Assembly: GCA_016189025.1 (NCBI GenBank)
Contig: JACPGS010000012.1
Span: 1-60,248, forward strand
Direction of reading: 5' to 3'
From: Candidatus Magasanikiibacteriota bacterium
GTDB lineage: Bacteria; Patescibacteriota; Patescibacteriia; Magasanikbacterales; GWA2-37-8
DNA: 60,248 nucleotides
Shown here one piece after another: positions 1,026-20,891 of the stretch. Under the pieces are notes generated by a model. That model had not been told where the DNA came from. It was given only the letters and a program-made list of their open reading frames with translations, and ran no database searches. Both the position numbers and the translations under genes were made by a program. Each line of letters starts with the position of its first letter. The first letter of the stretch is position 1.

Positions 1026-1627
1026 AAATTGATTTGAATTACAAAATTACTCCGGCCAGGTCGCTCGGTCGTGGTAGACACTCCTCCCGCGGCGTTACTT
1101 TAGTGGAAACTCTGGTTGTTTTAGCCCTGTTTCTCTTCATTTCGGTAATGTTTATCAGCCTGTATCTGCAGCATGGCTGGCTCTACCAGTTGGGGCAGGC
1201 GCAGTTTGATGCCGTGGGAGGCGCCCGGGCCGCTTTTAACGGCGTAGCGCCCTTTACTGCCCCGGCCCGGCAGGTGGCCGGGAGCTTTTCCGCCAGCAAT
1301 ACCATCTTTACCACCGGCACCACCACCCTGGTGCTGGAGCTGCCCGCCCGCGACGAGAGCGGCAATACCATTAGCGGCGCCTTTGATTACGCAGTGTTTT
1401 ACCAGAGCGATAATCAGTTCCACCGATTAATTTTTCCCCACGCTTCCAGCACCCGCCTAGCCGAGGAAAAAATTTTAAGCGACACCATTGCCGGATTAAG
1501 TTTCAGCTACGATCAGACGGACCTAGCTCTAGCCACAAAAATTACGCTGGCCGTCACCTCCACCGCCCCCGGCCGCCGGCCGGCCACCTACCAGGAGCAA
1601 GCGGAATTTATTTTGCGTAATCGTTGA
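1022..1627 (+). CDS. Type IV pilin-like or minor pilin protein
   Basis: ..SSRG|VTLVETLVVLALFLFISV prepilin motif with Glu at +5. It overlaps the stop of the upstream pilin gene by 4 nt (ATGA). Confidence 0.7.
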   Translation: MKIDLNYKITPARSLGRGRHSSRGVTLVETLVVLALFLFISVMFISLYLQHGWLYQLGQAQFDAVGGARAAFNGVAPFTAPARQVAGSFSASNTIFTTGTTTLVLELPARDESGNTISGAFDYAVFYQSDNQFHRLIFPHASSTRLAEEKILSDTIAGLSFSYDQTDLALATKITLAVTSTAPGRRPATYQEQAEFILRNR

Positions 1628-1644
1628 AGCAGATTTAGTAAGTT

Positions 1645-1833
1645 GAAACTGTAGAAGAATAAAAAAACCAGCTAGCATCAGGGCGCGGCAGACGAGTGTC
1701 TTTGGGCGCGCAGCCCCCGCGTAAGCGGGGGGAGCACCCAAAGAGTGTCTGCCGCGACCAACCAGGTGGGTTACAGCAATAGCGATAGCGACTAGGCGGA
1801 AAACGATATCTTCAGCATTCTTTTATAGTTTTC
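1645..1833 (+). mobile_element. MITE-like repeat, copy A (189 bp)
   Basis: Terminal inverted repeats gaaactgtagaagaat / attcttttatagttttc. The inner long hairpin gcgcggcagacgagtgtctttggg...cccaaagagtgtctgccgcg carries the apical hairpin ccccgcgtaagcgggg. It fills the intergenic gap. Confidence 0.7.
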
Positions 1834-1859
1834 AGTTACAAGCAAGTGAACAGTAAGTT

Positions 1860-3614
1860 ATGCAAGTTCAGCATCAAACTCAATCCGGCTACCTTCTGAT
1901 TTTTGCCCTGGTGTTTACTACCATTCTGATGACCGCCGCGGCGGGGCTGGTGGGCTATGCCCAGATTAATCTGAAAGCCGAGGCGCAGACCATTGCCCGC
2001 GCCCAGGCGCTGCCCTTGGCCGAGGCCGGCATTGAGCGGGCGATTAAGCGGCTGAATGAAGACGCCAATTACGCCGGCGAAACCGATACGCCGTTAGGCC
2101 CCGGATTTTTTACCGTGGGGGTAACCAGCGTGGATTCCTATACCAAGCGGCTGGTCGCCACCGGCCGGGTGATTTATGGCGGCGGCAGCGTGGCGGCCGA
2201 GACGATAAAAGCCGTCGTTAAGGTTGACAGCATTAATGCTTCGTTTACTTACGGAGTGCAATCCGGCCGGGGCGGGTTCACGATGGGCAATAATTCCCTG
2301 ATCAACGGGAGTCTTATCGCTAATGGCAATATTTCGGGCGCCGGGCGGGTAACCGGGGATGTTACGGTGACGGCCGGCGCCGCGGCCGAACCAGACCAAG
2401 GCTGGAATTTGTCCAACGCCGATTTTAATTTTGGTCATACCGATGACCGCACCGCCGTAGCGCAGCGGTTTGTGCCGACCCTTACCAACGCGTTAACCCG
2501 CGTCAGCGTGCAGCTGAAAAAAATCGGCAGTCCCAGCAACCTCATTTTACAAATCGTTACCGACAACAGCGGTTCGCCCTCCAAAACCGTGCTGGTAAGC
2601 GGTGCGGTTTCGGCCGCCTTGGTTTCTCCCGCTTACACCTGGGTAGATGCCGCCTTAAACGGGACGCTCAATTTAGCGGCCGGCCAGACTTATTGGCTAA
2701 TGCTGGTATCGGCGGTGAACGCTAATCATTATTACAGCTGGGCCATGGACCAGAACTTTCCCTCCGGTAAGTACAGCGCCAAATGGAACGCCGGCAACCC
2801 GGTGTGGAACCCGAGCGGCGGCCAGTTTAATTTTCAGACATATCTCGGCGGCGCCGTGAATACCTTAAGCGGCATTACGGTCGGCGGCACGGCCCGCGCC
2901 GCCGTAATGTCCGATTGTACCGTGGGGGGCGATGCCTATTTTGACCAAAGCAATACCTGCACGGTTCAGGGCCAACAATTCGGCGCTACTCCGGCCCCGC
3001 CGCCGGCGCCCTTCCCCGTTTCCGACGCCCAGATTGCGGCCTGGGAAGCGGCCGCTGCCGCGGGCGGCATCGTAGCCGGCGATTATGTGTTAGACGGCCA
3101 GACCGCCACGCTCGGCCCCCAAAAAATTGACGGCAATCTAACGGTTAGCAATAACAGCACGCTGAATTTAACCGGCCCGGTTTGGGTGGCCGGGGATTTG
3201 ATTTTTGATAACAATGTCCAAATCCGGCTGCACCCATCGCTCGGCAACGCCGGCACGGCAATTATCGCCGACTATCCGGCCAGTTCCACCCTAAAGGGCA
3301 AAATGACCATCGGCAATAATTCGGGAATTGCCGGCAACGGGCAGCCCGGCAGCCTTCCCCTGCTTATTAGCATGTACGCGGGGCCGGGCAACGCCATTGA
3401 TTTAAGCAACAATGCCACCAACACCATTTTCTTTGCCCCGCGCGGCACCATCACCATCAGCAATAATACTGAAGTAAAAGAAATGACCGCGCGCCAGATT
3501 AACATGAGCAACAACAGCGTGGTCAACTACGAAAGCGGCCTGCAGAGCGTCTATTTCACCACCGGCCCGGGCGGGTCGTGGCAATTCCAAAGCGGGAGTT
3601 ATGTGATTGAGTAG
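1860..3614 (+). CDS. Large pilus-associated or adhesin-like protein with a PilX-N-like hydrophobic N-terminus
   Basis: N-terminal QSGYLLIFALVFTTILMTAAAGLVGY..AEAGIERAIKRLN resembles PilX-type minor pilin N-termini. The rest is Gly/Asn/Thr-rich and looks beta-rich. It lies directly downstream of two pilin genes. Confidence 0.55.
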   Translation: MQVQHQTQSGYLLIFALVFTTILMTAAAGLVGYAQINLKAEAQTIARAQALPLAEAGIERAIKRLNEDANYAGETDTPLGPGFFTVGVTSVDSYTKRLVATGRVIYGGGSVAAETIKAVVKVDSINASFTYGVQSGRGGFTMGNNSLINGSLIANGNISGAGRVTGDVTVTAGAAAEPDQGWNLSNADFNFGHTDDRTAVAQRFVPTLTNALTRVSVQLKKIGSPSNLILQIVTDNSGSPSKTVLVSGAVSAALVSPAYTWVDAALNGTLNLAAGQTYWLMLVSAVNANHYYSWAMDQNFPSGKYSAKWNAGNPVWNPSGGQFNFQTYLGGAVNTLSGITVGGTARAAVMSDCTVGGDAYFDQSNTCTVQGQQFGATPAPPPAPFPVSDAQIAAWEAAAAAGGIVAGDYVLDGQTATLGPQKIDGNLTVSNNSTLNLTGPVWVAGDLIFDNNVQIRLHPSLGNAGTAIIADYPASSTLKGKMTIGNNSGIAGNGQPGSLPLLISMYAGPGNAIDLSNNATNTIFFAPRGTITISNNTEVKEMTARQINMSNNSVVNYESGLQSVYFTTGPGGSWQFQSGSYVIE

Positions 3615-3641
3615 TCAGTTGATTTTTGGCCGGTAATTTGT

Positions 3642-3700
3642 TATACTGTAGAAGAATCGGTAAATCTGTTAGCATCAGGGCGCGGCAGACGAGTGTCTTT
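3642..3700 (+). repeat. Truncated left half of the MITE-like repeat (copy B)
   Basis: tatactgtagaagaat..ttagcatcagggcgcggcagacgagtgtcttt matches the left arm of copies A and D, then breaks off. tatact is present on both sides. Confidence 0.65.
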
Positions 3701-3718
3701 AGTATACTAGATGAAATT

Positions 3719-4585
3719 ATGTCCAAAGTGCGTAAAGCCGTAATTCCGGTCGCCGGCTACGGCACGCGGTTTTTGCCGGCCACCAAGGCGCAGCCCAAAG
3801 AAATGCTGCCGGTGGTGGACAAGCCGATTGTGCAATATGTGGTGGAAGAAGTGGTAGCCTCCGGCATCACCGACATTATTCTGGTAACCGGCGCCAGCAA
3901 GCGCGCGGTGGAAGATCATTTTGATTATAATTACGAACTGCAGCAGTGGTTAAAAAAACAGGGCAAAGAAGATTTGCGCCAAGAAGTGAAGCATATTGCT
4001 GACCTTGCCAACTTTATCTACATCCGGCAAAAGGGCAACCCTGGCAACGGCACGCCGGCCTTATGCGCGCGCGAAGTAGTGGGCGACGAGCCGTTTGTTT
4101 ATATTTGGGGGGATGAATTTATTTACGCTCATCCACCCCGTACTAGGCAATGTCTGGCGGTATTTGAGAAGTACGGCGATCCGGTAATCTCCGGCATCCG
4201 CGTCGCCCGGAAAGACGTTTCCAAATACGGCATTGCCGAGGTGCAGCACATTGAAAAAAATATTTATCAAATTAAGTCTTTGGTGGAAAAGCCGACGCCG
4301 GCCGCGGCGCCTTCTACGCTCGCCACCCACGGCTGCTATATTCTGACCCCGGATATTTTTGATGATTTAGCGCGCCTGAAACCGGGCCGCGGCGGCGAAA
4401 TTTGGATCGTGGACGCCATTAAAAGTTTAATGAAGCGCCGGCCGGTGTACACCTGCGAGGTGGCTAACGCCACTTATTACGACACCGGCTCCAAACTGGG
4501 CTGGCTTAAGGCCAACGTGGATTTTGCCCTGCGCGATAAAGAACTGGGCAAAGATTTTAGGAAGTATTTAAAAAGCGTGATTTAG
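3719..4585 (+). CDS. galU: UTP--glucose-1-phosphate uridylyltransferase
   Basis: MSKVRKAVIPVAGYGTRFLPATKAQPKEMLPVVDKPIVQYVVEE is the canonical GalU N-terminus. The ORF-track start at 3626 reads through the repeat, so the ATG at 3719 is preferred. Confidence 0.9.
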   Translation: MSKVRKAVIPVAGYGTRFLPATKAQPKEMLPVVDKPIVQYVVEEVVASGITDIILVTGASKRAVEDHFDYNYELQQWLKKQGKEDLRQEVKHIADLANFIYIRQKGNPGNGTPALCAREVVGDEPFVYIWGDEFIYAHPPRTRQCLAVFEKYGDPVISGIRVARKDVSKYGIAEVQHIEKNIYQIKSLVEKPTPAAAPSTLATHGCYILTPDIFDDLARLKPGRGGEIWIVDAIKSLMKRRPVYTCEVANATYYDTGSKLGWLKANVDFALRDKELGKDFRKYLKSVI

Positions 4586-5050
4586 CAGAGTCAGCAGAGT
4601 CAGAAATCAGCAGATTCAGTATTGGATATGGCGCAGATAAAGACCTTCCACGATTTACAGGTTTGGCAAAAGGCGCACCAGTTGGTTTTGCTGGTGTATA
4701 AAATTACTGTTGGTTTTCCTTCCCATGAACGCTACGGACTAGTCAGCCAAATGCGCCGCGCGGCAGTTTCGGTCGCCGCTAATTTAGTAGAGGGTTTTCG
4801 GAGAAAGTCGTTAAAAGATAGCGTTAATTTTTATCACAACGCCGCCGCTTCGCTGGAAGAACTTAAGTATTTTTTGTTACTGTCACAAGATATCGGCTAT
4901 CTTAACAGTCAGGCTTATACTAAAGTAGCTGGAATTTCCGAAGAAGTTAGTAAACTGTTAACTCGTTGGATTCAAAGTCAACACCAATATCTCTAAAATT
5001 ACTGATCACTGAGTCTGCTAATCACTGAATCTGCTAATTAAATATCTGCT
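4584..5050. mobile_element. Inverted-repeat-bounded cassette carrying the four-helix-bundle gene
   Basis: The left arm agcagagtcagcagagtcagaaatcagcagattcag and right arm ctgagtctgctaatcactgaatctgctaat are imperfect inverted repeats. They belong to the same cagcagattcag/ctgaatctgctg family that forms gene-less hairpins at 8027-8115 and 13726-13794. Confidence 0.5.
4622..4996 (+). CDS. Four-helix-bundle protein (23S rRNA intervening-sequence protein family)
   Basis: FHDLQVWQKAHQLVLLVYKIT..FPSHERYGLVSQMRRAAVSVAANLVEGF..LEELKYFLLLS is the typical signature of this family. The start may be the ATG at 4628. Confidence 0.85.
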   Translation: MDMAQIKTFHDLQVWQKAHQLVLLVYKITVGFPSHERYGLVSQMRRAAVSVAANLVEGFRRKSLKDSVNFYHNAAASLEELKYFLLLSQDIGYLNSQAYTKVAGISEEVSKLLTRWIQSQHQYL

Positions 5051-6436
5051 ATGCCAATCAAACCGCGCTGGTTTACCTTACTGTTAGCGGCAATACTGCT
5101 TACGTCAACCGGTTTAGGCTGCAAAGGCCTCTCGGGCGCCGAACAGGCCGCCACCAAGCCGGTAAAGCTGGAATACTGGACCGTGGTTGAGGATGTTCCG
5201 GCCCTGCAGGCGGCCGTAGAAAAATACCGCGTTTTTCGCCCGTATCTTACCGTAAACATCCGCACCCTGCGCCCCGAGGAGGTCTACGGGCAACTGATAG
5301 AAGCGCTGGCCGAAGATCGCGGCCCGGATATTATTTCTTTGCGCAATCGGTGGTTAGGGCAGTATTTGAGCAAATTAGCCCCCCTGCCCGAGAGCATCCC
5401 CGATACCACGGTTTACACCGAGCGCGGCCGCTTCAGTACGCAAACCACGGTTACTACCCAAACCCGCCCCCTGCTCAACCCACGGCAATTGGAAAGCGAA
5501 TATGTGCAGGCGGTAGCAAAGGATGCGGTATTGGGCGGTAAAATCTACGGCCTGCCGTTTTCGCTGGACACGATGGCGCTGTATTATAATAAAGATATTC
5601 TAGATCGCGCCGGCGTGCCGAGCCCCCCCAAAACCTGGGAAGAATTCCAGGCCGCTGCTAAAAAGGCCACCCGGTTTGACCGGCGCACCGGCAAACTGGT
5701 GCAGGCCGGCGCGGCTTTGGGCGTTGGCAGTAATGTCCCGGGCAGCGACGATTTATTCTATTTGTTGTTGCGCCAGAGCGGACTGGAGCTGACTGATAAG
5801 CGCACCGGCGCGGCAGTGTTTCACCTCGCCGCTGACCGCAATGCGGAAACGCCGGTAATGTCCGTATTAAATTTCTTTACGGATTTTGCCAACCCCAACC
5901 GCGATACTTATACCTGGAACGCGGACCAGGGCAATGCTTTGGATGCCTTTGTGTCCGGCCGGCTGGCGTTCTTTTTTGGCTACAGTTACCACTATTCACA
6001 AATCAAAAGCCGCGCGCCTCAACTTAATTTAGGGGTGTTGCCGATGCTTCAGCTTAACTCCGAAGAGCCGGTGAATGTGGCCAACTACTGGGTGCAGGCG
6101 GTGCTGGCAAAATCCCCGCGCCAAGCGGCGGCCTGGGGGTTGATTGATTATCTGGCGCGGGGCGACGCCAATAAAGAATACCTGGATGCCACCCTCCGCC
6201 CCACGGCGCGGCGCGTTTATGTGGCCGAACAGCAGGCCAAGCCGGAACTCAAGCCTTTCGTCTCCGACGTATTGATTGCGGAAAACTGGTATCGCGGTAA
6301 AAATTACGAAGCCGCGGCGCGCGCCCTTAATGATTTGTTCGCGGCTTGGCTGGAACCGGTTGATCCCCAGCGTCCATTTGAAGCGCGTCAGGAGGCCCTG
6401 AATCGCGCCGCGGCGAGAATAAATCAGAGTTTATGA
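5051..6436 (+). CDS. ABC transporter extracellular solute-binding lipoprotein (family 1, sugar-type)
   Basis: Lipobox LLTSTGLGC, length about 460 aa, and YGLPFSLDTMALYYNKDILDRAGV..PKTWEEF typical of sugar-binding SBPs. Confidence 0.75.
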   Translation: MPIKPRWFTLLLAAILLTSTGLGCKGLSGAEQAATKPVKLEYWTVVEDVPALQAAVEKYRVFRPYLTVNIRTLRPEEVYGQLIEALAEDRGPDIISLRNRWLGQYLSKLAPLPESIPDTTVYTERGRFSTQTTVTTQTRPLLNPRQLESEYVQAVAKDAVLGGKIYGLPFSLDTMALYYNKDILDRAGVPSPPKTWEEFQAAAKKATRFDRRTGKLVQAGAALGVGSNVPGSDDLFYLLLRQSGLELTDKRTGAAVFHLAADRNAETPVMSVLNFFTDFANPNRDTYTWNADQGNALDAFVSGRLAFFFGYSYHYSQIKSRAPQLNLGVLPMLQLNSEEPVNVANYWVQAVLAKSPRQAAAWGLIDYLARGDANKEYLDATLRPTARRVYVAEQQAKPELKPFVSDVLIAENWYRGKNYEAAARALNDLFAAWLEPVDPQRPFEARQEALNRAAARINQSL

Positions 6437-7083
6437 AATTTTTTCATTCTCTCTTCCTGCTCACGCCTATCCTCTTGGCATTTTTCATCGGCGCGGTTTC
6501 TCCGGCAACGGCCGCGGCGGACTATTGTTTTTGCGGTCCTAAAGATGTTAGCCAATTCGCGGCGCAGAAATTAGCCGATCAAATGCCACCGGCCATTTGC
6601 GCCAGACTTGATACTAACCTCACTGCCGTTGATTGCGAAGCGCAAAAGGCCAGTCCGGACAAGGGCATTTACCGCTGCGAGCTGCGGGAAACCGAAGCCA
6701 ATTGCCAGGCGTCGGTTGACGCTGTCAATGCTCAATTGGGCCGGCAGCAAGGGCGCTATAAGGTTTTGGGTATCGTCATCCCCTCCTGCCTATTTGAGCC
6801 GGTGTTGCCCCGCGAGTGCCGTGACATCAGTTTGTTTGTGGAATTGCTGATTAACTTCGGGAGCGCAACGTTTACCATTGTGGGCGCTTTTGCCCTGGCG
6901 TTCTTTATCTACGGCGGATTTAATTTAATTATCGCCCAGGGCAACCCGGAAAAAATTAAAAAGGGCGGCGATGCGATGCTCGCCGCGGTTATCGGCCTGG
7001 TGATTGTATTTGCCGGCTACCTGCTGATCCGCTTCCTCGGCGAGGCGGTGGGGGTGAAGGAGTTTTATCAATTGCCTAGGTAG
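6433..7083 (+). CDS. VirB2/TrbC-like (T4SS-pilin-type) membrane protein, paralog 1, with N-terminal 8-Cys module
   Basis: Signal peptide, 8 Cys, then the core FFIYGGFNLIIAQGNPEKIKKGGDAMLAAVIGLVIVFAGYLL (TM, basic loop, TM). The ATG overlaps the SBP stop (ATGA). Confidence 0.7.
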   Translation: MKFFHSLFLLTPILLAFFIGAVSPATAAADYCFCGPKDVSQFAAQKLADQMPPAICARLDTNLTAVDCEAQKASPDKGIYRCELRETEANCQASVDAVNAQLGRQQGRYKVLGIVIPSCLFEPVLPRECRDISLFVELLINFGSATFTIVGAFALAFFIYGGFNLIIAQGNPEKIKKGGDAMLAAVIGLVIVFAGYLLIRFLGEAVGVKEFYQLPR

Positions 7084-7090
7084 TTATTAT

Positions 7091-8023
7091 ATGCAATGGC
7101 AATGGAAACAGTTTATTAGTAACAGTTTAATAATCCTTGCCCTGGGTGCGGCAATGCCAGTATGGGCATCACATGAAGGCAGTCATGTGGACGTCGGATT
7201 ACGCAAGCTAATTGCGTCTCCGACCGAACAGTGCCCTAACCAAGATACTTGTTTAGGATTATGTCAGTGCGAAGTTAAATACGAGGATGCCGAAACTTCT
7301 TATCGTTTTAACTTTTTCACTCCCAAGGACGGTTATATACTTGATGGTTGGTTGCTGGGGGGCGACGTAACTACCGGCCTTTACCAATGGAAGAATGTTT
7401 TTTATTTTACTCCGACGGTAGGCAATGTATCAGGTAAATGCCAAATAGAATCACAGGGCAGGACTCCAGAATACCAGCAGGTTGCCGCGGAAGAATTGGA
7501 GGTTAATCGGTGCAATTTCTACCGGGCATTTTGTTGCTGTACCACTGACTCTTCCGGCAAACGTACCAAATGCCAACGTTCAGTCAATTTTGATCTGACT
7601 AAATCACCGCCCGCTTACCAATGTTCCGGCGCCGGCGAGCAAGCATTTGATGAACCCAAAACCAACGAAGGGTGCAAAGCGTTGGAATATCGGGAGGCAG
7701 TGAAACCCGGCGAAGAGCCCACCGAGCCGCTGGCGGTGGCGGTGGGGAGATTGCAGCGCCAGGCGCGCGGGCTGCAGCGGGTGCCGCGTTTTACCAGTCC
7801 GGCCCAGGTGCTAGGGTTTGCCACCAACGTACTGGTGATGTTTATCGGCGCCCTGGCCCTGGTGATGTACATTTTTGCCGGCTTTCTGTGGATGACCGCT
7901 TCGGGCAACACCGAGCGCATTGAGCACGCCAAGCGTTTGCTGGTGTGGACCACGGTGGCAGTCGCCATTATGATATCAAGTTATCTGTTAGTGAGCCGAG
8001 TGTTTGTATTTTTAGCGAAGTGA
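7091..8023 (+). CDS. VirB2/TrbC-like membrane protein, paralog 2, with N-terminal 12-Cys module
   Basis: Signal peptide, 12 Cys (CPNQDTCLGLCQC.., FCCC..), and C-terminal core MYIFAGFLWMTASGNTERIEHAKRLLVWTTVAVAIMISSYLL. Confidence 0.7.
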   Translation: MQWQWKQFISNSLIILALGAAMPVWASHEGSHVDVGLRKLIASPTEQCPNQDTCLGLCQCEVKYEDAETSYRFNFFTPKDGYILDGWLLGGDVTTGLYQWKNVFYFTPTVGNVSGKCQIESQGRTPEYQQVAAEELEVNRCNFYRAFCCCTTDSSGKRTKCQRSVNFDLTKSPPAYQCSGAGEQAFDEPKTNEGCKALEYREAVKPGEEPTEPLAVAVGRLQRQARGLQRVPRFTSPAQVLGFATNVLVMFIGALALVMYIFAGFLWMTASGNTERIEHAKRLLVWTTVAVAIMISSYLLVSRVFVFLAK

Positions 8024-8026
8024 GAG

Positions 8027-8115
8027 TGATTAGCAGAATCAGCAGAGTCAGCAGATTCAGAAATCAGCAATTGGCTGGCTGCTGAATCTGCCGAATCTGC
8101 TGATAGCTGATTACT
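8027..8115. repeat. Gene-less hairpin of the cagcagattcag family
   Basis: gattagcagaatcagcagagtcagcagattcagaaatcagcaa / gctgaatctgccgaatctgctgatagctgatt form an imperfect long palindrome directly upstream of paralog 3. Confidence 0.7.
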
Positions 8116-8130
8116 AAAACATTCCACATT

Positions 8131-8712
8131 ATGCGTTTCTTCCCGACTATCCTCATAATCAGCATCAGTTTAGCGGCCGGCGGCCCCTGGGCGCTGGCGC
8201 CGGCGCAGGCCGCCAAGCCAGCTTTTTGTTGCCAGTGTGTAGATGAGCAAGGGACGCCCCTTCGTTATCCCGCGCGAGTTTCCGCAGATTTTCTTAAAGG
8301 TAAAACCCCTAATGACCTGGATCTGGTTTGTCGTAATGTTGATTTCGGCGCCGGTATCAGATGTTCCGGCACGGCAAAGGATTGCCCCGTAGTAGACGAA
8401 GAATCCGGCTGTTTTACCGCGGACAACGGTTACACCTACTGCGCGCTGGAAAATCCCCTGACTGGAGACGAAACCAACTTGGCCAAGATCTTCGGGCGAA
8501 TTCTTCGCTACGCTCTGGGCCTCCTCGGCGCGCTTACCCTGCTCATGATCGTGCGGGGCGGGCACATTATGCTCACCGCCGCGGGGAACCCCGAAAAAAT
8601 CAAAAAAGGCACCCAGACCATTATGTGGGCGGTAATCGGGGTATTCCTGATTCTCGCCAGTTACTTCCTGATGAGCCGCCTGATTAGTCTGATTACCAAA
8701 GGCACCGTGTAA
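8131..8712 (+). CDS. VirB2/TrbC-like membrane protein, paralog 3, with N-terminal 8-Cys module
   Basis: Signal peptide ..ALAPAQA, 8 Cys (FCCQC..), and core LLMIVRGGHIMLTAAGNPEKIKKGTQTIMWAVIGVFLILASYFL. Confidence 0.7.
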   Translation: MRFFPTILIISISLAAGGPWALAPAQAAKPAFCCQCVDEQGTPLRYPARVSADFLKGKTPNDLDLVCRNVDFGAGIRCSGTAKDCPVVDEESGCFTADNGYTYCALENPLTGDETNLAKIFGRILRYALGLLGALTLLMIVRGGHIMLTAAGNPEKIKKGTQTIMWAVIGVFLILASYFLMSRLISLITKGTV

Positions 8713-8717
8713 TTTAC

Positions 8718-8808
8718 TGTCATTCCGAGGAACAGAGCACCCAACAATTGTCATCCCCGTGTAAACGGGGATCCAGATACTGGATTCCCGCTTCTGCGGG
8801 AATGACAC
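8718..8808. repeat. REP-like palindromic units (gtcattcccgc..gcgggaatgac family)
   Basis: tgtcatccccgtgtaaacggggatccag and ctggattcccgcttctgcgggaatgacac, plus a degenerate unit. The antisense ORF 8170..8808 (MSFPQKRESS..) is a translation artefact of it. Confidence 0.75.
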
Positions 8809-8901
8809 AAGAGCGAGGGTGACAAGTAGGGGACGATGACTATGAGAGCGCTTTGGAGAAAGGCTTTCTTGTTCCTCTTGACAATCATTAGTGTTATTAG
8901 G

Positions 8902-8930
8902 TTGCCAAAAAGGAAGATTTATGCTATACT
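8902..8930 (+). promoter_or_regulatory. Sigma70-type promoter candidate for paralog 4
   Basis: TTGCCA, 17 nt, TATACT. A strong SD (gaggggg) lies before the ATG at 8993. Confidence 0.5.
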
Positions 8931-8992
8931 GTAAGCATAGCTAAAAACGGATTAGTTTCCGTTAGTTTACTTAAACGAGAGGGGGTGACACT

Positions 8993-9487
8993 ATGGACAA
9001 CTTTCGTAAGATTATCGGCAGTCTGTTGGGCACGTTAATGATGTTGACGGCGGCTCCCGCTTTAGCGGGCACCACTCCAGTCGGCAGCGCTTGTACCGTG
9101 GACGCCGACTGCGTATCGCCGAACGTGTGTACCGGTTCACCCAAGGTGTGTACCGCGCCGTCAACCAGCGGCCCGCTTCAGGCCACCGACCTGCTTAATG
9201 TCGGCACGCGGAACATCGGCTCCGAAATTGGTCTGGGTACCACCGATGTCCGGATTACGATCGCCAAAATTATCCGCGTCGCCATGGGGCTCTTGGGTAT
9301 CGTCGCGGTAGTAATTGTATTGATCGGCGGCTTTACCTGGATGACGGCTGGCGGCAACGAAGAAAAAGTAGGAGAGGCGAAAAAATGGATCTGGGCCGGC
9401 ATTATCGGCCTCGCCATTATCCTCTCTGCTTACGCCATTGCCAGCTTTGTCATTACCCAGCTGATTCAAGCGACTACCCAACCGTAG
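8993..9487 (+). CDS. VirB2/TrbC-like membrane protein, paralog 4, with short N-terminal 4-Cys module
   Basis: Signal peptide ..APALAG, ACTVDADCVSPNVCTGSPKVC, and core VLIGGFTWMTAGGNEEKVGEAKKWIWAGIIGLAIILSAYAIASFV. Confidence 0.75.
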   Translation: MDNFRKIIGSLLGTLMMLTAAPALAGTTPVGSACTVDADCVSPNVCTGSPKVCTAPSTSGPLQATDLLNVGTRNIGSEIGLGTTDVRITIAKIIRVAMGLLGIVAVVIVLIGGFTWMTAGGNEEKVGEAKKWIWAGIIGLAIILSAYAIASFVITQLIQATTQP

Positions 9488-9547
9488 TAAATTTTCTTAA
9501 GTCATTTGATTACTAAAGGTCGGGGGAAAATTAACTCAACCTTACTT

Positions 9548-9958
9548 ATGTTAAAAATCAAACAATTTGTTTCCACCGCGCTTGCTGCCTTGATGGCGGT
9601 AGCGGCGACTTTCGCGCCGGTAGCGCTGCCGATTGCTTCGGCCCAGACTATCACTAACCAGGACCTGGGCATTCAATACGGCGCGGCCACCGGCCTCGGC
9701 AGCACTGATGTGCGGGTAACGGTAGCCCGCATTATCCGGGTAGCCATGGGGCTCCTGGGAATTATCGCGGTAGTAATTATCCTCATCGGCGGCTTTACCT
9801 GGATGACGGCTGGCGGCAACGAAGAAAAAGTGGCGGAAGCCAAGAAGTGGATTTTTGCCGGCATTATCGGGCTTGCCATTATCCTCTCTGCTTACGCCAT
9901 TGCCAGCTTTGTCATTAACCAGTTGGTAACGGCCACCACCACCGGCGGCACGATTTAA
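9548..9958 (+). CDS. VirB2/TrbC-like membrane protein, paralog 5 (no Cys module)
   Basis: MLKIKQFVSTALAALMAVAATFAPVALPIASA signal peptide. The core is nearly identical to paralog 4 (ILIGGFTWMTAGGNEEKVAEAKKWIFAGIIGLAIILSAYAIASFV). ATG 9548 is preferred over the TTG at 9506. Confidence 0.75.
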   Translation: MLKIKQFVSTALAALMAVAATFAPVALPIASAQTITNQDLGIQYGAATGLGSTDVRVTVARIIRVAMGLLGIIAVVIILIGGFTWMTAGGNEEKVAEAKKWIFAGIIGLAIILSAYAIASFVINQLVTATTTGGTI

Positions 9959-10046
9959 CGAAGAAGCAACCTCGCAAGAAAGCAGCCGAGCCTCGCGGCT
10001 CTCTGCTTTCTTGGCTTATTGCTTGTTCCTCGCCCCTTCATTGTTT

Positions 10047-10721
10047 ATGCTGTTTAGTCGCTTTCGCGCCTCGGCCGCCATCATCGGAATCGCCCTGGTT
10101 TTAATGCCGGCGTTGGCAACGGCGCAGGAAAAACCGGATGAGTACGGCTTGGAAACTGCCGTGGGGCAAACCGGCGGGCTGCTGCGGCCGACGGTAGCCG
10201 GGCAGAGCACCGTAGAAGGCGTAATCGGCGAAATTGTAAAGGCCTTGCTTGGGTTTACCGGCATTATTTTTTTTGGGTTGATGTTGTACGCCGGTTTTAC
10301 CTGGATGCGCGCTTTCGGCAACACCGAGTATGTGGAGCGGGCCAAGAGCATTTTGGAAGCGGCGGTGATTGGGCTTCTGCTGGTGCTGGCCGCTTATGCC
10401 ATAGCCACCTTTGTGTTTGAGAGCCTAACTAAAGGAGCGGGCAGTACGGCCGGCGGGGGAACTTCCACTGCTTTGGCCTGTACGGCGGGCAGAGTAGACG
10501 GAGCAGAATGCGGCGATAATAAGGTATGCGATTGCGGATTAGAGCAGGGAGCTGCCTGCACTAGCGCGGGAACCTGCGTAGATTTGTGCCAGTATAATTT
10601 TAGCGATAAAAACGGCGTTTGCACCGATGTTAGCGGTAGTGGCGGCGCTTGCCCGGGCAGCAAAATTAAAGAAACTGGATTGTGCCCGGGCAGCGCCAAT
10701 AATGTCTGCTGCCACGATTAG
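10047..10721 (+). CDS. VirB2/TrbC-like membrane protein, paralog 6, with C-terminal 12-Cys module
   Basis: MLFSRFRASAAIIGIALVLMPALATA signal peptide, core MLYAGFTWMRAFGNTEYVERAKSILEAAVIGLLLVLAAYAIATFV, then a Gly-rich linker and 12 Cys. Confidence 0.7.
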   Translation: MLFSRFRASAAIIGIALVLMPALATAQEKPDEYGLETAVGQTGGLLRPTVAGQSTVEGVIGEIVKALLGFTGIIFFGLMLYAGFTWMRAFGNTEYVERAKSILEAAVIGLLLVLAAYAIATFVFESLTKGAGSTAGGGTSTALACTAGRVDGAECGDNKVCDCGLEQGAACTSAGTCVDLCQYNFSDKNGVCTDVSGSGGACPGSKIKETGLCPGSANNVCCHD

Positions 10722-10734
10722 TTATTTTTTGAGT

Positions 10735-11499
10735 ATGGCGAAACGTATCTTTTATAGTTTTTTGCTGACTTTAATCGGCGGAGGATTTTTGTTTGCCCTA
10801 GCGAGCGGGGCAGCAGCCGGGCCATTTGGCGAAGCGCAAGAACGGCTCAGGAAGGCGGTTGGCAACACCGGTTTAAGTCCGCAAATTGAAACTCCGGTCG
10901 GGGCGGTGGTAAAAGGCGCGCTGTCGCTGGTGGGCACGGTATTTTTGCTGCTGACGGTTTACGCCGGCATTTTGTGGATGACGGCCGAGGGCCAGGAAGA
11001 GCGGGTGGAAAAAGCGCGCAAAATTATTACTGCGTCAGTCATCGGCCTGTTTATTACTCTGGGCGCCTACGCCATTACCTTTTTTGTCACTACGCGTCTG
11101 GGAGGGGCAGCGCCGGGGGGTGGGGGAACCACCCCAGCCGGCGTACCACCGGTATCAGGAACTCCGGGGTTCTCGGTTACCACCGAGGCTACTTGCTGGT
11201 CGCAAGGTGGTTGGTGTATGGACGATGCGTTAACCGGAGATAAGACCGGGGGGAAAGATTATGCCGTAAATGATTATGACAGCAGCAACCCCTGCGATCC
11301 CAACGGCACCGACCCGTTTGAAAATCATCAGTTGGGGACCTGTGAGAACGGCGTCAAGTGCTGCGAACTAAAGGCTTCAACGCAAAAGTGCACTCAATTA
11401 AACAATACCAGTTGCGGCGCCGCCAGTTGCGGCCCCACCCAATACCCGGTCGGCTTTAAGTGCGACAACGGCAATCCTTGTTGCGGTGCCAATCCTTGA
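10735..11499 (+). CDS. VirB2/TrbC-like membrane protein, paralog 7, with C-terminal 12-Cys module
   Basis: MAKRIFYSFLLTLIGGGFLFALASGAAA signal peptide, core TVYAGILWMTAEGQEERVEKARKIITASVIGLFITLGAYAITFFV, Gly/Pro linker, and 12 Cys (..KCCELK..PCCGANP). Confidence 0.7.
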   Translation: MAKRIFYSFLLTLIGGGFLFALASGAAAGPFGEAQERLRKAVGNTGLSPQIETPVGAVVKGALSLVGTVFLLLTVYAGILWMTAEGQEERVEKARKIITASVIGLFITLGAYAITFFVTTRLGGAAPGGGGTTPAGVPPVSGTPGFSVTTEATCWSQGGWCMDDALTGDKTGGKDYAVNDYDSSNPCDPNGTDPFENHQLGTCENGVKCCELKASTQKCTQLNNTSCGAASCGPTQYPVGFKCDNGNPCCGANP

Positions 11500-11507
11500 A
11501 CCTCCCT

Positions 11508-11993
11508 ATGAAAATTTTGGCTGGAGTAGTAGTAAGTATTTTCGTCATTTTGCTTTTTGCCGCTTCCAGTGTTTGGGCAGCGGTAGACATTGGCAGTAAT
11601 CTTACCCAAGAAGTAGCGCGCCAGGCGGGTTTTGAAACCAGTGGCGTTACCGAAACCACTTTTTCCGAACAAGTGGGGCGCGTGATAAAGGCGGCCCTGG
11701 GGCTCGCGGGCACGGTATTTTTGGCGCTTACCATCTACGCCGGCATTTTGTGGATGACCGCGAGCGGCAACGAAGAACAGGTGACCAAAGCCACCGGGAT
11801 TTTACGCCAGGCGATTATCGGCCTGATTATCGTGCTGTCGGCCTACGGTTTGGTAGTATTTGTGCTGGTGGCAGTGAGCAGCGCCGGCGGCGCCGGCACC
11901 GTGGGCGGCGCTGGGGCGAGTACGGGCCCGGCCGGATTCTGGAAGAGCTTTGGCGGGCATTTTAAGAATAATTGGTGGCGGTATTTGTTCTAA
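11508..11993 (+). CDS. VirB2/TrbC-like membrane protein, paralog 8, with Gly-rich aromatic C-tail
   Basis: MKILAGVVVSIFVILLFAASSVWA signal peptide, core TIYAGILWMTASGNEEQVTKATGILRQAIIGLIIVLSAYGLVVFV, and tail ..GFWKSFGGHFKNNWWRYLF. Confidence 0.7.
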   Translation: MKILAGVVVSIFVILLFAASSVWAAVDIGSNLTQEVARQAGFETSGVTETTFSEQVGRVIKAALGLAGTVFLALTIYAGILWMTASGNEEQVTKATGILRQAIIGLIIVLSAYGLVVFVLVAVSSAGGAGTVGGAGASTGPAGFWKSFGGHFKNNWWRYLF

Positions 11994-11994
11994 A

Positions 11995-12030
11995 GCAGAT
12001 TAAGAGATCAGCAGATTCAGCAGTCAGTCC
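11995..12030. repeat. Half-site of the cagcagattcag repeat family
   Basis: agcagattaagagatcagcagattcagcagtcagtcc. Only one arm is present. Confidence 0.5.
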
Positions 12031-12090
12031 TGTCATTCCCGCGAACGCGGGAATCTATCACCTGGATCCCCGCTTGCGCGGGGATGACAG
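12031..12090. repeat. REP-like palindromic units
   Basis: tgtcattcccgcgaacgcgggaatc and ctggatccccgcttgcgcggggatgacag. Confidence 0.75.
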
Positions 12091-12102
12091 TTTGCAACTC
12101 CT

Positions 12103-12531
12103 ATGCGCCCTACCATAATTATCCTCTCCGCTATCTTTGCCCTCGCCCTCTTAACTGCAGCAACGGCGCAGGCGCAATTGGCCTCCGAGGAAATCGGTAA
12201 ACAATTGGAGGCCGCGGCGGGCCCCAGCGGCGCCGCGCTCGGCGAGCCCATTGACCCGCGCGTTACCGTGGTGTTTATTATCCGCGTCCTGCTGTCGCTT
12301 ACCGCTACGGTACTCGTCGCCCTTAACCTTTACGCCGGATTTATGTGGATGACCGCGGCCGGCAACGAAGAGCGGGTAACTTCTGCTAAAACTATCATCC
12401 GCAATGCCACTATCGGCCTGATTATCGTGCTTTCGGCTTACTCCATTACCATTTTCGCCTTCAACCTGGCGCGCGGCACGCCGCCGGTTCCTCCGGGCGC
12501 CGAAATTGTCATCCCGCTCTTCGGCAAGTAG
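12103..12531 (+). CDS. VirB2/TrbC-like membrane protein, paralog 9
   Basis: Signal peptide ..LLTAATAQA and core LNLYAGFMWMTAAGNEERVTSAKTIIRNATIGLIIVLSAYSITIFA. Confidence 0.75.
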   Translation: MRPTIIILSAIFALALLTAATAQAQLASEEIGKQLEAAAGPSGAALGEPIDPRVTVVFIIRVLLSLTATVLVALNLYAGFMWMTAAGNEERVTSAKTIIRNATIGLIIVLSAYSITIFAFNLARGTPPVPPGAEIVIPLFGK

Positions 12532-12542
12532 CTCCCGCGCTT

Positions 12543-13256
12543 GTGGTATCCGTGATTATTCCGGCGTTTAACGAAGAGGAGCTGCTGCCGCAGTGTCTTA
12601 CTTCTCTCTCGGCGCAAAAGGGCGCTCCGCCTTTTGAAGTAATAATCGTCAATAATTTTTCCACCGACCGCACCCGCTTGGCGGCGGAGCAATTCCGCGG
12701 CCGCCTTAATTTGCGGGTAGTGGACGAGCCCCGGCGCGGGCGCGGTCAGGCGCGGGCGCGCGGATTTGCCGAAGCTCAAGGCGAAATTCTCCTCTCCACC
12801 GATGCCGACGCTATCCTGCCGGAGCACTGGGTAGCCGCTCTTACGCAGGCGCTGCAAAACCAAAACATTGCGGCCGTTACCGGCCCGGCGCGGGTCGCTG
12901 ATTGCGGCGCCCTCGGCAGCGCCCTGTTTAACGGGATTTTTTTGGCCACGGTGCGCGTGTACCGGCTGCTCTTCGGCCACGTTTGGCTCGGCGGCTATAA
13001 CTTCGGCATCCGGCGGCCGGCTTACCAGGCCGCCGGCGGCTTTAATGCGGCGCTCAACGCGATGGAAGACGTTGACTTGGGCTGGCGGGTGCATCGCTCT
13101 GGCGGGTCCATTCGCTATTTGCCCCGGGCCGGGGTAACTTTCTCCGGCCGGCGCTTCCGGACCGGCATTTCCCGGGGTCTATGGGATTACCTGCGATTAT
13201 TTTATCGTTATCGGCGGGGCGCCGCGGCGCCGGTAGTGCTGTCGGATGTGCGGTGA
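12543..13256 (+). CDS. Family 2 glycosyltransferase
   Basis: VSVIIPAFNEEELLPQCLTSL.., a DxD-like motif (STDADAILP), and ..YNFGIRR. GTG start. Confidence 0.8.
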   Translation: MVSVIIPAFNEEELLPQCLTSLSAQKGAPPFEVIIVNNFSTDRTRLAAEQFRGRLNLRVVDEPRRGRGQARARGFAEAQGEILLSTDADAILPEHWVAALTQALQNQNIAAVTGPARVADCGALGSALFNGIFLATVRVYRLLFGHVWLGGYNFGIRRPAYQAAGGFNAALNAMEDVDLGWRVHRSGGSIRYLPRAGVTFSGRRFRTGISRGLWDYLRLFYRYRRGAAAPVVLSDVR

Positions 13257-13276
13257 AGAAAACTGCGAGGTATTTT

Positions 13277-13449
13277 GAGACTATAGAAGAATGCCGACGA
13301 TACTATTATTCGTCAGGGCGCTGTCGCTCTTGCCCGGCCTGCCTGGTCGGGCGCGGCAGACACTCTACGTGCTCGCGAGGGCTCAAGCGCGTAGAGACTC
13401 GTCTGCCGCGCCCTGATTCTGACTGATTTTTTGATTCTTCTACAGTCTC
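13277..13449 (-). mobile_element. MITE-like repeat, copy C (divergent core, reverse orientation)
   Basis: TIRs gagactatagaagaat / attcttctacagtctc, inner arms gcgcggcagacactct..agagactcgtctgccgcgc, flanked by the direct repeat atttt on both sides. Confidence 0.7.
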
Positions 13450-13460
13450 ATTTTATTAGG

Positions 13461-13533
13461 GGTGTCCAGTCGGATTTGAACCGGCGCTCAGGGAGCCACA
13501 ATCCCTGGTGCTAACCACTACACTATGGACACC
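13461..13533 (-). tRNA. tRNA-His (anticodon GTG)
   Basis: G-1 plus acceptor GTGTCCA/TGGACAC, anticodon stem AGGGA/TCCCT with loop TTGTGGC, T arm GCCGG-TTCAAAT-CCGAC region. Confidence 0.85.
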
Positions 13534-13541
13534 ATCAAGCC

Positions 13542-13616
13542 TGGTGACCCCACTAGGAATTGAACCTAGATCTAGAGCTTAGAAGGCTCCCGTTCTATCC
13601 GTTGAACTATGGGGTC
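13542..13616 (-). tRNA. tRNA-Arg (anticodon TCT)
   Basis: Acceptor GACCCCA/TGGGGTC, D arm GTTC-AACGGATA-GAAC, anticodon loop CTTCTAA, T arm CTAGG-TTCAATT-CCTAG. CCA is encoded. Confidence 0.9.
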
Positions 13617-13725
13617 ATTCCCTGGGGGTCGATAAACTTCGCTTATCATACCGGATTTTGCGCACAAAAGCAAGGTGTGGTACCATATCAGTTAGTCAGC
13701 CATCCCATTCGGCAAGCTCAGGGCA

Positions 13726-13794
13726 GGCAGCAGATTCAGAAATCAGCAAGTGGTTGGCCGCTGAATCTGCCGAATCTGCTGATAACTGATTGCT
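13726..13794. repeat. Gene-less hairpin of the cagcagattcag family
   Basis: ggcagcagattcagaaatcagcaagtggttggccgctgaatctgccgaatctgctgataactgatt is nearly identical to the 8027-8115 copy. It lies directly upstream of paralog 10. Confidence 0.7.
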
Positions 13795-13809
13795 AAAAAA
13801 TTTTCTGCT

Positions 13810-14178
13810 ATGCGCACCATCAATATCATTGCCGTATGGCTAATGCTGGTAATCACTCCCCTGCTCTTAGTGGGGGTGTGGCGGGCCAGCGCCCAAAACT
13901 ACGGGTTAGATAAAACTGCCGGGCAGGCCGGCTATACCGCGGCCGAGCGCCAGATTGAGCCGCTGGTAGAGCGGGCGGTAAACGGATTTTTGGCGCTGCT
14001 CGCGATTTTGTTCCTGGGGCTGATGCTCTACGGCGGCCTGCGCTGGATGACGGCCCGCGGCAACGAGGAACTGTCCGGCCGGGCCAAACACGCCATTGAA
14101 GCGGCCATTATCGGCCTTACCATTGTGGTCGCTTCTTACGCCATCGCCACGTTGGTATTCCGGTTAGTGGGGGGTTGA
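13810..14178 (+). CDS. VirB2/TrbC-like membrane protein, paralog 10
   Basis: Signal peptide ..VGVWRASA and core LMLYGGLRWMTARGNEELSGRAKHAIEAAIIGLTIVVASYAIATLV. Confidence 0.75.
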   Translation: MRTINIIAVWLMLVITPLLLVGVWRASAQNYGLDKTAGQAGYTAAERQIEPLVERAVNGFLALLAILFLGLMLYGGLRWMTARGNEELSGRAKHAIEAAIIGLTIVVASYAIATLVFRLVGG

Positions 14179-14642: not shown

Positions 14643-15213
14643 TCGCGGGGCAACTGCCTTGCCTAAACCGCACCCTCTTAAGCACCCGGAACAGCGCGTC
14701 GGGGTGTTTATTGACGTGCAGAACATGTATTACAGCGCTAAGAATCTGTTTGGCGCCAAGGTTAATTTCGGCAATATTGTTAAAGAGGGTACGGCCGGCC
14801 GCAAGCTGATTCGCGCCATTGCCTATGTGGTGCGCACCGAAAGCAAAGAAGAGCAGCCGTTTTTTGATGCGCTGTATAATTTAGGCATTGAAACCCGCGA
14901 AAAACCCCTGCAGATATTTTTTGGCGGTGAAAAAAAGGCAGATTGGGATGTCGGCATGGCGGTTGACGTCCTTCGGCTGGCGCCGGCCCTGGATGCAGTT
15001 GTGCTAGTTTCCGGAGACGGTGATTTTGTTCCCCTTATTGAATATGTGCGTATTAATCAAGGTCGGCAGGCCGAGGTGATGGCATTCGGTGAAACCGCTT
15101 CCAGCAAGCTGATTGAAGCGGCCGATGATTTTACCGATTTAAGCCAGGCGCCCGATAAGTTTTTAATCGCCGGCCCCCGGCGCAGCTGGCGGGCGGCGTT
15201 GGGGAAGAAATGA
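14626..15213 (+). CDS. NYN-domain (LabA/DUF88-like) putative ribonuclease
   Basis: [45 protein letters not shown] matches the NYN/LabA acidic-residue pattern. It overlaps the rpsO 3' end by 17 nt. Confidence 0.75.
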
Positions 15214-15273
15214 GCAATTAACAATTAACAAAGAGCAATTAACTTGCTCCTTGTTCATTGCTAATTGTTAATT
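15213..15273. repeat. caattaacaat-type palindromic repeat
   Basis: gagcaattaacaattaacaaagagcaa / ttgctccttgttcattgctaattgttaatt is an imperfect hairpin starting at the NYN gene stop codon. Confidence 0.65.
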
Positions 15274-15363
15274 TTCATTTAATCACGGGTTCTGGCGCGC
15301 GGACCCCGAGACCTTTTCCGGTAAAGAGGTCTTACGCTCGCTCGCCAGCCCCGCCACTAAATT

Positions 15364-18085: not shown

Positions 18086-18114
18086 CCTCTCGCCCATCAA
18101 AGATCAATTATGTA

Positions 18115-18142
18115 TGGATTCCCGCTTACGCGGGAATGACAC
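18115..18142. repeat. REP-like palindromic unit in the rRNA leader
   Basis: tggattcccgcttacgcgggaatgacac. Confidence 0.7.
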
Positions 18143-19730: not shown

Positions 19731-19768
<38 letters not shown>

Positions 19769-20869: not shown

Positions 20870-20891
20870 AGCGAAATTCCTTGTCGGGTAA

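Follow-up and report, generated by a model that had tools for sequence, protein, structure and literature searches.

Does a row of pilin-like genes in a Patescibacterium belong to a conjugation operon, or does it encode a surface structure of another kind? The question is raised by ten pilin-like genes (P1 to P10) at positions 6433-14178 of contig JACPGS010000012.1 (assembly GCA_016189025.1) from a Candidatus Magasanikiibacteriota bacterium. The window analysed is this whole contig of 60,248 bp, to which our negative findings on type IV secretion system (T4SS) genes of the source genome are confined. An original prediction, made from the letters of the DNA, had described VirB2/TrbC-like pilins, several of them fused to cysteine-rich modules, and had read the array as a modular library of surface or pilus subunits rather than a conjugation operon. 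Our analysis places the ten proteins with confidence in the PF18895 (T4SS_pilin) family, follows the locus as an old, conserved unit through related genomes, and inclines us towards modular, surface-exposed subunits of a pilus-like structure that a T4SS would assemble.

Ten pilin-like proteins and their common core

All ten open reading frames (ORFs) were found on the + strand where they had been predicted, and a core of approximately 82 residues, with invariant G, A, G, E and Y, could be aligned in every one of them (Table 1, where coordinates are given with the most plausible start codons). Core identity to P1 is 23–33% among the paralogues and reaches 84% between P4 and P5, and seven of the cores are recognisable at the DNA level as a direct-repeat family; as aligned, the resemblance among the ten cores is far beyond chance. 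A - strand ORF at 56542-56901, with a weak DUF308 match, was considered as an eleventh paralogue and rejected, as its core does not align. The predicted core motifs hold in most members, with the exception of the WMT triplet in P1 and P3 (GGFNLIIAQGNPEK and GGHIMLTAAGNPEK, respectively) and of the second helix of P2, which reads AVAIMISSY in place of IGLxI..AY. Every protein starts with a hydrophobic segment and, behind it, an AxA-type site (read by eye), in keeping with the signal peptide claimed for it; two hydrophobic helices in each were delimited by hydropathy segments. An AlphaFold2 (AF2) model of P5 (predicted local distance difference test score, pLDDT, 79) consists of a signal-peptide helix and a long hairpin (H55-87/H92-135), and a model of P2 (pLDDT 64, moderate confidence) shows beta strands in the N-terminal module in addition to the hairpin.

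PF18895, the T4SS pilin family of the candidate phyla radiation (CPR) that had been said to fit the proteins, was matched by all ten (E 1e-10 to 9e-5), eight of them above its cut-off of 26.6 bits (28.1–42.0 bits). P2 (23.5 bits, E 6e-5) and P9 (23.0 bits, E 9e-5) fell just under the cut-off; these two scored 98–110 bits against a profile of the window's own paralogues (P9 110) and have positional orthologues in related loci. On this evidence we assign all ten proteins to PF18895 with confidence. The PF18895-type family has at least 5,919 members, mostly bare hairpins, and some close homologues match both PF18895 and PF04956 (TrbC/VirB2). The Mbov_0395 family of pilin-like proteins from Mycoplasma integrative and conjugative elements (ICEs; NF045849) was likewise matched by all ten, at 16–34 bits (E 1.6e-8 to 5e-3), in every case below its cut-off of 40 bits.

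Kinship with classical conjugative pilins was assessed with hhalign against eight annotated VirB2/TrbC genes located between VirB1 and VirB3, the Agrobacterium tumefaciens VirB2 sequence being validated against plasmid records. A set of 71 CPR cores aligned with them over 60 columns, with both helices in register and GGFTWMT opposite IGISWMF (probability 66%, E 5.6e-5); with the ten paralogues only, the probability was 36% (E 4e-4). Homology to classical VirB2 is therefore best described as probable and remote. Like VirB2, TrbC and TraA, the array proteins have a signal peptide, two hydrophobic helices, a short polar loop, termini predicted to lie outside, a G-x-x-WM-type junction in register with VirB2 and conserved helix glycines. 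Their loop is about 8 residues longer (8 in the hhalign register) and acidic/basic (GNEEKVxxAKK), whereas the classical loop is short and basic. Classical pilins are approximately 70 aa long when mature, and belong to diderm systems with VirB1-B11 neighbours.

The mature Cys counts of the ten proteins are those predicted, all of them even, and the Gly-rich aromatic tail of P8 is present as described (Table 1); in P6, P7 and P8 the longest ORF contains one further Cys, located before the likely ATG. No Pfam family matched the modules, and their similarity to each other was not significant, so they are not repeats of one domain. For the P2 module, a full HMMER scan of 1.84 billion representative proteins yielded six distant relatives of the same length (E 1e-17 to 3e-4), in which nine Cys columns are invariant. 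When searched against 5.8 billion proteins, the P2 N-terminal module retrieved only itself and the P7 C-terminal module alone gave zero matches, in a search whose word filter misses fast-evolving modules; the only other record containing P2 is a 5.6-kb fragment. Foldseek comparison of the P2 model with the PDB returned no fold match. BLAST of every module against all pilin ORFs of the 79 related loci described below returned almost nothing, so that module families could not be built except for P2. Most modules are beyond BLAST detection, or barely detectable, even in positional orthologues. In these comparisons conservation lies in the hairpin, with very fast evolution of the modules.

From a signal peptide plus two transmembrane (TM) helices we infer an N-out/C-out topology, as had been proposed. 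With both termini outside, the N-terminal modules of P1–P4 and the C-terminal modules of P6 and P7 would be extracytoplasmic and disulfide-bonded. The even Cys parity fits extracellular disulfide pairing, and extends to the related loci, where 133 of the 142 C-terminal extensions with at least two Cys have an even count and Cys density is 4.6% in extensions versus 0.12% in cores. An MdbA-like oxidoreductase and VKOR are enriched in CPR genomes (Meheust et al., bioRxiv 10.1101/335083).

A conserved locus in related genomes

Related loci were collected with four closer cores as query and one genome per species, which gave 79 loci; ORFs were called in these and searched with a hidden Markov model (HMM) of the ten cores. 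This yielded 555 pilin-core ORFs, with a median of 7 and a maximum of 14 per locus, of which 229 carry an extension (N-terminal >90 aa or C-terminal >40 aa). The closest loci are titled Magasanikbacteria, Uhrbacteria, Falkowbacteria or Parcubacteria. Many CPR-typical locus records (L002, L005, L011 and others) are titled 'uncultured Gammaproteobacteria bacterium', apparently a placeholder or mislabel.

Order and module fusions proved to be conserved among the arrays. With N and C for pilins with N- and C-terminal modules and o for bare ones, the array of the window has the layout N N N o o C C o o - o, compared with N N o o o C o o o - C in both L002 and L043 and N N o o o C C o o - n in L004; the order N-N-(N)-o-o-C-C-o-o...last recurs in L002, L004, L005, L043 and others. 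Best matches are one-to-one and positional (P1->1, P2->2, P4/P5->4, P6->6, on to P10->10). Taken together with the conserved order, these matches indicate an old set of distinct paralogues, not a recent expansion. Of the originally proposed modular surface library, the distinction from a conjugation operon is upheld by housekeeping synteny and the lack of a relaxase in the contig. The library is not a recent, lineage-specific one, but consists of about ten ancient positional orthologues.

As judged by synteny, the locus is an old unit, conserved position by position in Magasanikbacteria/Uhrbacteria-like genomes, in the order galU, sugar-type solute-binding protein (SBP), N-module pilins, bare pilins, C-module pilins, bare pilins, family 2 glycosyltransferase (GT2) and last pilin. 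The galU gene lies upstream of the array in 43-44 of the 79 loci, and the SBP gene directly upstream of it or embedded in it in 47-49, including about a dozen loci (e.g. L017, L018 and L029) with pilin genes on both sides of the SBP. The GT2 family occurs in 20 loci, at an identical position in L004, L043 and L007, and the 10-12 closest loci also keep rpsO, NYN and pnp. No ABC permease or ATPase was found among the conserved neighbours of the related loci.

Divergence differs strongly by position. The P4/P5 core shows 57-85% identity with its orthologues, rising to as much as 91% over the core in other species; P4 compared with position-4 orthologues likewise gives 57-85%, and PNPase from the same genomes 66-74%. 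P2 is 26-48% identical, in partial alignments. P1 aligns full-length in the four closest loci (32-43%), and in more distant loci aligns in the core only (~46% of the query, 45-56%). Extension size varies between orthologues: P10 is bare in the window, and its position-10 orthologues are often enlarged by a long Cys-rich C-terminal extension, the whole proteins measuring 476 aa (30 Cys) in L002, 379 aa (26 Cys) in L007 and 370 aa (18 Cys) in L006. Across 551 cores, the most conserved region is the hairpin turn together with the helix glycines (G32 100%, G40 99%, G58 99%, G21 94%, W35 85%).

The hairpin also heads much larger proteins. L057 (2627-14345), L061, L063, L066, L069 and L073 contain gene pairs with an N-terminal PF18895 hairpin, one protein of approximately 675 aa and one of 2,000-3,400 aa, with TIG/Big_5 Ig-like domains and 76-118 Cys; these pairs adjoin genes for signal peptidase S26 and HisRS. 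They look like giant pilin-anchored adhesins.

The sole T4SS ATPase found in the related loci is a VirD4-like gene in L012 (region 4734-10276), a coupling protein with a solitary pilin 2.5 kb downstream. In L067 (2179-12146), a five-gene array lies near dnaA; it has no Cys-rich modules, and one member has a Cys-free C-terminal extension. Both contexts match the T4SS- and origin-proximal setting known from the literature. For the L007 genome, Magasanikbacteria GW2011_GWA2_37_8, a published survey lists VirB4-TrsD-VirB3 at CDS 794-796, several type IV coupling proteins and a single VirB2 call (Table S3, PMC12102498), and arrays of the present type were probably not counted there. In ABY1, the class in which that study places Magasanikbacteria (Table S1), virB4 loci are found near comF, recG and radA.

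Neighbouring genes and repeats in the window

The genomic context is as originally described, with type IV pilin-like genes upstream, an SBP gene whose stop codon overlaps the P1 start (ATGA, 6433-6436) and a GT2 gene (Table 1). No ABC permease or ATPase gene is close to the SBP gene. In agreement with the claim that VirB4, VirB6 and VirD4 are missing from the window, these families and relaxases gave zero matches in the sizeable ORFs of the contig, and integrases likewise none. A Walker A motif is lacking in the three unannotated large ORFs, which are also not polytopic: a TM segment is present in orf584 alone, once and at the N-terminus. The ORFs at 33798-35732 (+, 644 aa) and 46491-51005 (-, 1,504 aa) stay below threshold with all Pfam and NCBIfam families, contain few Cys and neither a TM segment nor a Walker A motif, and are apparently charged, helical proteins.

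Table 1 Features of the pilin array and its surroundings in contig JACPGS010000012.1.
Feature	Position	Strand	Length (aa)	Mature Cys	PF18895 (bits)	Description
P1	6433-7083	+	216	8	36.5	N-terminal module type; signal peptide, ~100-aa N-terminal module (8 Cys), hairpin core
P2	7091-8023	+	310	12	23.5	N-terminal module type; signal peptide, ~210-aa beta-rich N-terminal module (12 Cys), hairpin core
P3	8131-8712	+	193	8	41.8	N-terminal module type; signal peptide, ~90-aa N-terminal module (8 Cys), hairpin core
P4	8993-9487	+	164	4	38.1	Signal peptide, short 4-Cys N-terminal segment, hairpin core
P5	9548-9958	+	136	0	42	Bare core; longest ORF begins at TTG 9506
P6	10047-10721	+	224	12	29.2	C-terminal module type; core, Gly/Ser/Thr linker, C-terminal 12-Cys module
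P7	10735-11499	+	254	12	28.1	C-terminal module type; core, Gly/Pro/Thr linker, ~110-aa C-terminal 12-Cys module
P8	11508-11993	+	161	0	39.3	Core and Cys-free, Gly-rich, aromatic C-terminal tail
P9	12103-12531	+	142	0	23.0	Bare core with short Pro-rich tail
P10	13810-14178	+	122	0	28.6	Bare core, detached from the other nine
Type IV pilus / type II secretion system pseudopilin-like trio	642-1025, 1022-1627, 1860-3614	+				Pilin class other than that of the array
galU (UTP-glucose-1-phosphate uridylyltransferase)	3626-4585	+				TIGR01099, 327 bits (cut-off 326.8); PF00483
23S-rRNA-IVP/bAvd-like four-helix-bundle gene	4622-4996	+				PF05635, E 7e-35; between galU and SBP
Carbohydrate-type extracellular SBP	5051-6436	+				PF13416/PF01547; weak GanS/MalE/UgpB matches
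GT2 glycosyltransferase	12543-13256	+				PF00535, E 1.5e-27; between P9 and P10
tRNA-His(GTG) and tRNA-Arg(TCT)	13459-13616	-				ARAGORN, Rfam; between GT2 and P10
Promoter-like site TTGCCA-17-TG-TATACT	8902-8930	+				280-bp gap before P4; consensus scan
85-nt hairpin element, copy 1	8039-8123	+				Repeat D10; upstream of P3; -39.7 kcal/mol, z -5.4
85-nt hairpin element, copy 2	13718-13802	+				Repeat D10; upstream of P10; -31 kcal/mol, z -1.8

The promoter-like site before P4 matches the consensus at 10 of 12 positions, with an extended -10 element, and is a pattern match only. The two copies of the 85-nt hairpin element are 88% identical and each ends approximately 8 nt before a pilin start codon; the energies in Table 1 are for RNA folding, and possible roles include those of a regulatory leader, a terminator or insulator and a small mobile repeat. 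Five intergenic sites (8749-8823, 12031-12074, 18114-18157, 43741-43841 and 51790-51833) carry a palindromic, GC-rich repeat of REP-like type (TGTCATTCCCGCGAACGCGGGAAT...), two of them lying in gaps of the pilin array (P3/P4 and P8/P9). Elsewhere in the window, an intergenic repeat of approximately 190 nt (1623-1805 and 39272-39453, partial at 3659-3713; 81-95% identity), with internal complementary segments and no Rfam match at the gathering threshold, is possibly a mobile repeat or a structured RNA that has escaped annotation. Two intergenic regions (15209-15285 and 44552-44628) share a 77-nt AT-rich repeat (AATTAGCAATTAACAATTA...; 77% identity).

Pfam N_methyl matches were obtained in the pseudopilin-like trio, whose first two genes carry PF07963 and whose 584-aa ORF has GspK-like and choice-of-anchor R matches; the trio is syntenic in L009. 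Homologues of the bAvd-like gene are found around the array, at varying positions, in 4 related loci. This gene suggested a diversity-generating retroelement, a reading that was ruled out: the window ORFs scanned include no reverse transcriptase, and there is no template/variable repeat pair and no repeat pair involving the Cys-rich modules. Downstream (3') of P10 follow rpsO, an NYN-domain gene and pnp. The contig as a whole is CPR-typical, with a group I intron in the 23S rRNA gene, LAGLIDADG ORFs, glycolysis and nucleotide salvage genes and no respiratory genes, and its GC content is unremarkable. The 23S rRNA (18489-24318 region) spans 3,655 nt, with the group I intron at 20609-20871; LAGLIDADG endonuclease ORFs lie at 22198-22839 and 23175-23750, between the 23S and 5S genes, and there is no 16S gene on the contig.

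Readings of the array and their consequences

Tandem pilin arrays as a kind of feature are already published. Quinonero-Coronel et al. (2025, PMC12102498) screened 3,035 Patescibacterial genomes with CONJScan profiles and those of PF04956 and PF18895. In 383 assemblies they recorded 441 'VirB2 arrays' of 2-11 pilin genes that are in tandem or have one non-pilin gene between them; identity within the arrays averages 25% and reaches at most 54%. A pilin was near virB4 in only 1,135 of 1,948 assemblies (PMC12102498), so association with T4SS machinery is frequent, not universal. A pilin series inside a T4SS cluster is essential in Southlakia / S. epibionticum (Wang et al. 2023, PMC10633639), and a 2025 review treats the array as the first possible pilus of a monoderm T4SS. 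With such arrays (the SEML1 T4SS cluster; the 'Sec-secreted array' of N. lyticus TM7x) the present one shares PF18895, a monoderm CPR host, a tandem layout, approximately 25% mutual identity, a chromosomal location and the absence of a relaxase. Nine of its genes are in tandem and the tenth lies beyond GT2 and two tRNAs, which makes it an array as defined in PMC12102498; ten genes stand at the upper end of the published range, and the 84% identity of P4 and P5 exceeds the published maximum. Published arrays consist of structurally conserved small pilins, often in or near a virB4 cluster, and are commonest in Microgenomatia and Saccharimonadia, whereas the present array is far from T4SS genes, is flanked by galU, SBP and GT2, and has Cys-rich ectodomains on six of its ten members. 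No mention of Cys-rich or other ectodomain fusions, or of an SBP link, was found in the array papers or in full-text literature searches. The position-conserved fusions at either terminus, the galU/SBP/GT2 linkage and the separation from virB4 were not found described in the searched literature.

Other known systems resemble the array in part. The Mbov_0395 family likewise consists of small two-helix proteins, in monoderms with MPF-FATA-type systems; the ICE context is absent at the present locus. Type IV pilins form an unrelated class, with a single N-terminal helix, a prepilin-peptidase motif and PilB/PilC machinery, and in the modular type IV pilins of Streptococcus sanguinis an adhesive domain is grafted onto the pilin module. 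The principle is alike, a conserved module with a variable displayed domain on a monoderm surface, but a Pfam search found no PF07963 N_methyl motif in any of the ten array proteins, the N_methyl genes of the window being separate at 642-3614. TrwL of the Bartonella Trw system and the Anaplasma VirB2 paralogues are likewise tandem, divergent VirB2 copies, in T4SSs re-purposed for host adhesion and not DNA transfer, a functional analogy drawn in PMC12102498. They differ from the present array in belonging to diderm pathogens of eukaryotes, and are small pilins without fused ectodomains, encoded inside a T4SS operon.

As read from its flanks and distribution, the locus belongs to the chromosome of an ABY1-type Patescibacterium, is vertically inherited and encodes a surface structure. 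On balance, we favour the view that its products are surface-exposed, modular VirB2-like subunits of a pilus-like structure, assembled by a T4SS and not part of a conjugation operon. Each protein would carry a Sec signal peptide, probably cut at the AxA site, and would insert as a two-helix hairpin with the short GNEE-K loop in the cytoplasm and both termini outside. The hairpin would serve as the common assembly module for one machine, most likely a VirB4-TrsD-VirB3 T4SS encoded elsewhere; by analogy with related genomes, the source genome probably encodes a T4SS outside the contig. The near-invariant turn and helix glycines, maintained despite 23-33% paralogue identity, point to a common partner, which might be an assembly ATPase or platform, a lipid head-group, or the packing of subunit against subunit. 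The bare, most conserved P4/P5 type would then be the bulk subunit of a pilus-like or sheath-like structure, and binding specificity for the host surface would come from the paralogues with modules, as minor, tip or decorating subunits. This division of labour is suggested by the conservation of P4/P5 versus the divergence of P2 and the modules, and by the promoter-like site before P4. Glycosylation of the Ser/Thr/Gly/Pro linkers, or synthesis of an associated glycan, may be the task of the galU and GT2 products, and the SBP may be a glycan-binding partner.

Several points weigh against this pilus-like, T4SS-assembled structure. Among the 79 loci, no multi-gene array was found to have a T4SS gene less than 10 kb away, and SBP-linked arrays had none at all; T4SS genes elsewhere in the source genome are beyond the reach of the 60,248-bp contig. 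Direct matches to PF04956 were sub-threshold (cut-off 27.9 bits), the best being P4 at 15.2 and P5 at 13.5 bits, with none for the other eight at E<=1. A PDB sequence search with the core profile found no solved conjugative pilin, only spurious designed 'Pizza' repeats. Foldseek of the P5 model against the PDB was non-specific, with nothing below E 1: the best hit was ATP synthase subunit c (E 1.7), and the Aeropyrum conjugation pilus came 38th (E 6). Foldseek is weak for this core, since a bare helical hairpin is too generic a fold. A tightly packed helical filament of the VirB2 type would hardly accommodate extensions of 100 to >3,000 aa. Several classical pilins (T, RP4, H) are cyclised head-to-tail, and the large terminal domains make such cyclisation, as seen in T/P/H-type pilins, impossible here. 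Signal-peptide cleavage and topology are judged from sequence, the roles of SBP, galU and GT2 are proposed from synteny, and polymerisation into a pilus is putative. Finally, we know of no pilus ever seen for the PF18895-type family.

Alternatively, the hairpin could be a mere membrane anchor, the proteins being independent, non-polymerising surface proteins without a T4SS and 'pilin' a historical label. This we consider possible, though doubtful. The absence of T4SS genes near SBP-linked arrays, the extensions on 229 of 555 members, the lack of a structural match to solved pilins and the presence of the hairpin on adhesin-like TIG/Big_5 proteins of 675 aa and 2,000-3,400 aa, awkward as filament subunits, all speak for an anchor. 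However, an anchor has no need of a near-invariant turn (G32, G40, W35, N41, E43) and helix glycines in 551 divergent proteins. Four of the ten paralogues and most family members are bare and would have nothing to display, yet the bare ones are the most conserved, and the homologous Saccharibacteria array lies inside a T4SS cluster and is essential.

A bolder reading, which we put forward as a speculation of rather low probability, is that the ABY1 hairpin has been freed from the T4SS altogether and serves as universal building block of an SBP-coupled, glycosylated, VirB4-independent appendage, with hypervariable disulfide-rich and giant Ig ectodomains for recognising and holding the host.

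It is improbable that the hairpins form a membrane ring or channel, c-ring- or holin-like, that works with the SBP in solute or glycan uptake in place of an ABC permease. The translational coupling of SBP to P1, its place adjacent to or inside the array in 47-49 of the 79 loci with no conserved ABC permease or ATPase neighbour, and helix glycines suited to tight ring packing would agree with such a channel, as would the top Foldseek match of the core, ATP synthase subunit c, but at E 1.7 this match is non-significant and carries no weight. No transport-family HMM reached threshold with the ten proteins, ten distinct paralogues with bulky ectodomains would be unexpected, and it is virB4, and not an SBP, to which homologues in other CPR classes are linked (PMC12102498).

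An ordinary mating-pilus operon of a conjugative mobile element with duplicated pilin genes, suggested by the family name and the weak TrbC and Mycoplasma ICE pilin-like matches, can be dismissed as very improbable: relaxase, VirB4, VirB6, VirD4 and integrase are not found in the 60-kb contig, few Patescibacteria have relaxases (109 homologues, from 103 of 3,035 genomes, PMC12102498), GC content is unremarkable, and housekeeping flanks (galU, rpsO, pnp, rRNA) in constant order across many species rule out a mobile-element origin.

A large part of bacterial diversity consists of Patescibacteria, whose cells live attached to others and whose ways of recognising and holding a host are largely unexplained; a VirB2-like pilin array is essential in the sole genetically tractable species, where it has no known role. 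A conserved hairpin with fast-evolving, disulfide-stabilised ectodomains, ranging up to giant Ig-repeat ones, is what a host-specificity determinant would be expected to look like. The linkage to an orphan sugar-binding protein, galU and GT2 points to a testable involvement of glycans, and HMM surveys centred on virB4 probably under-count ABY1 arrays. If the hairpin has indeed been freed from the T4SS, these proteins would represent a new class of monoderm surface organelle derived from descendants of conjugative pilins.

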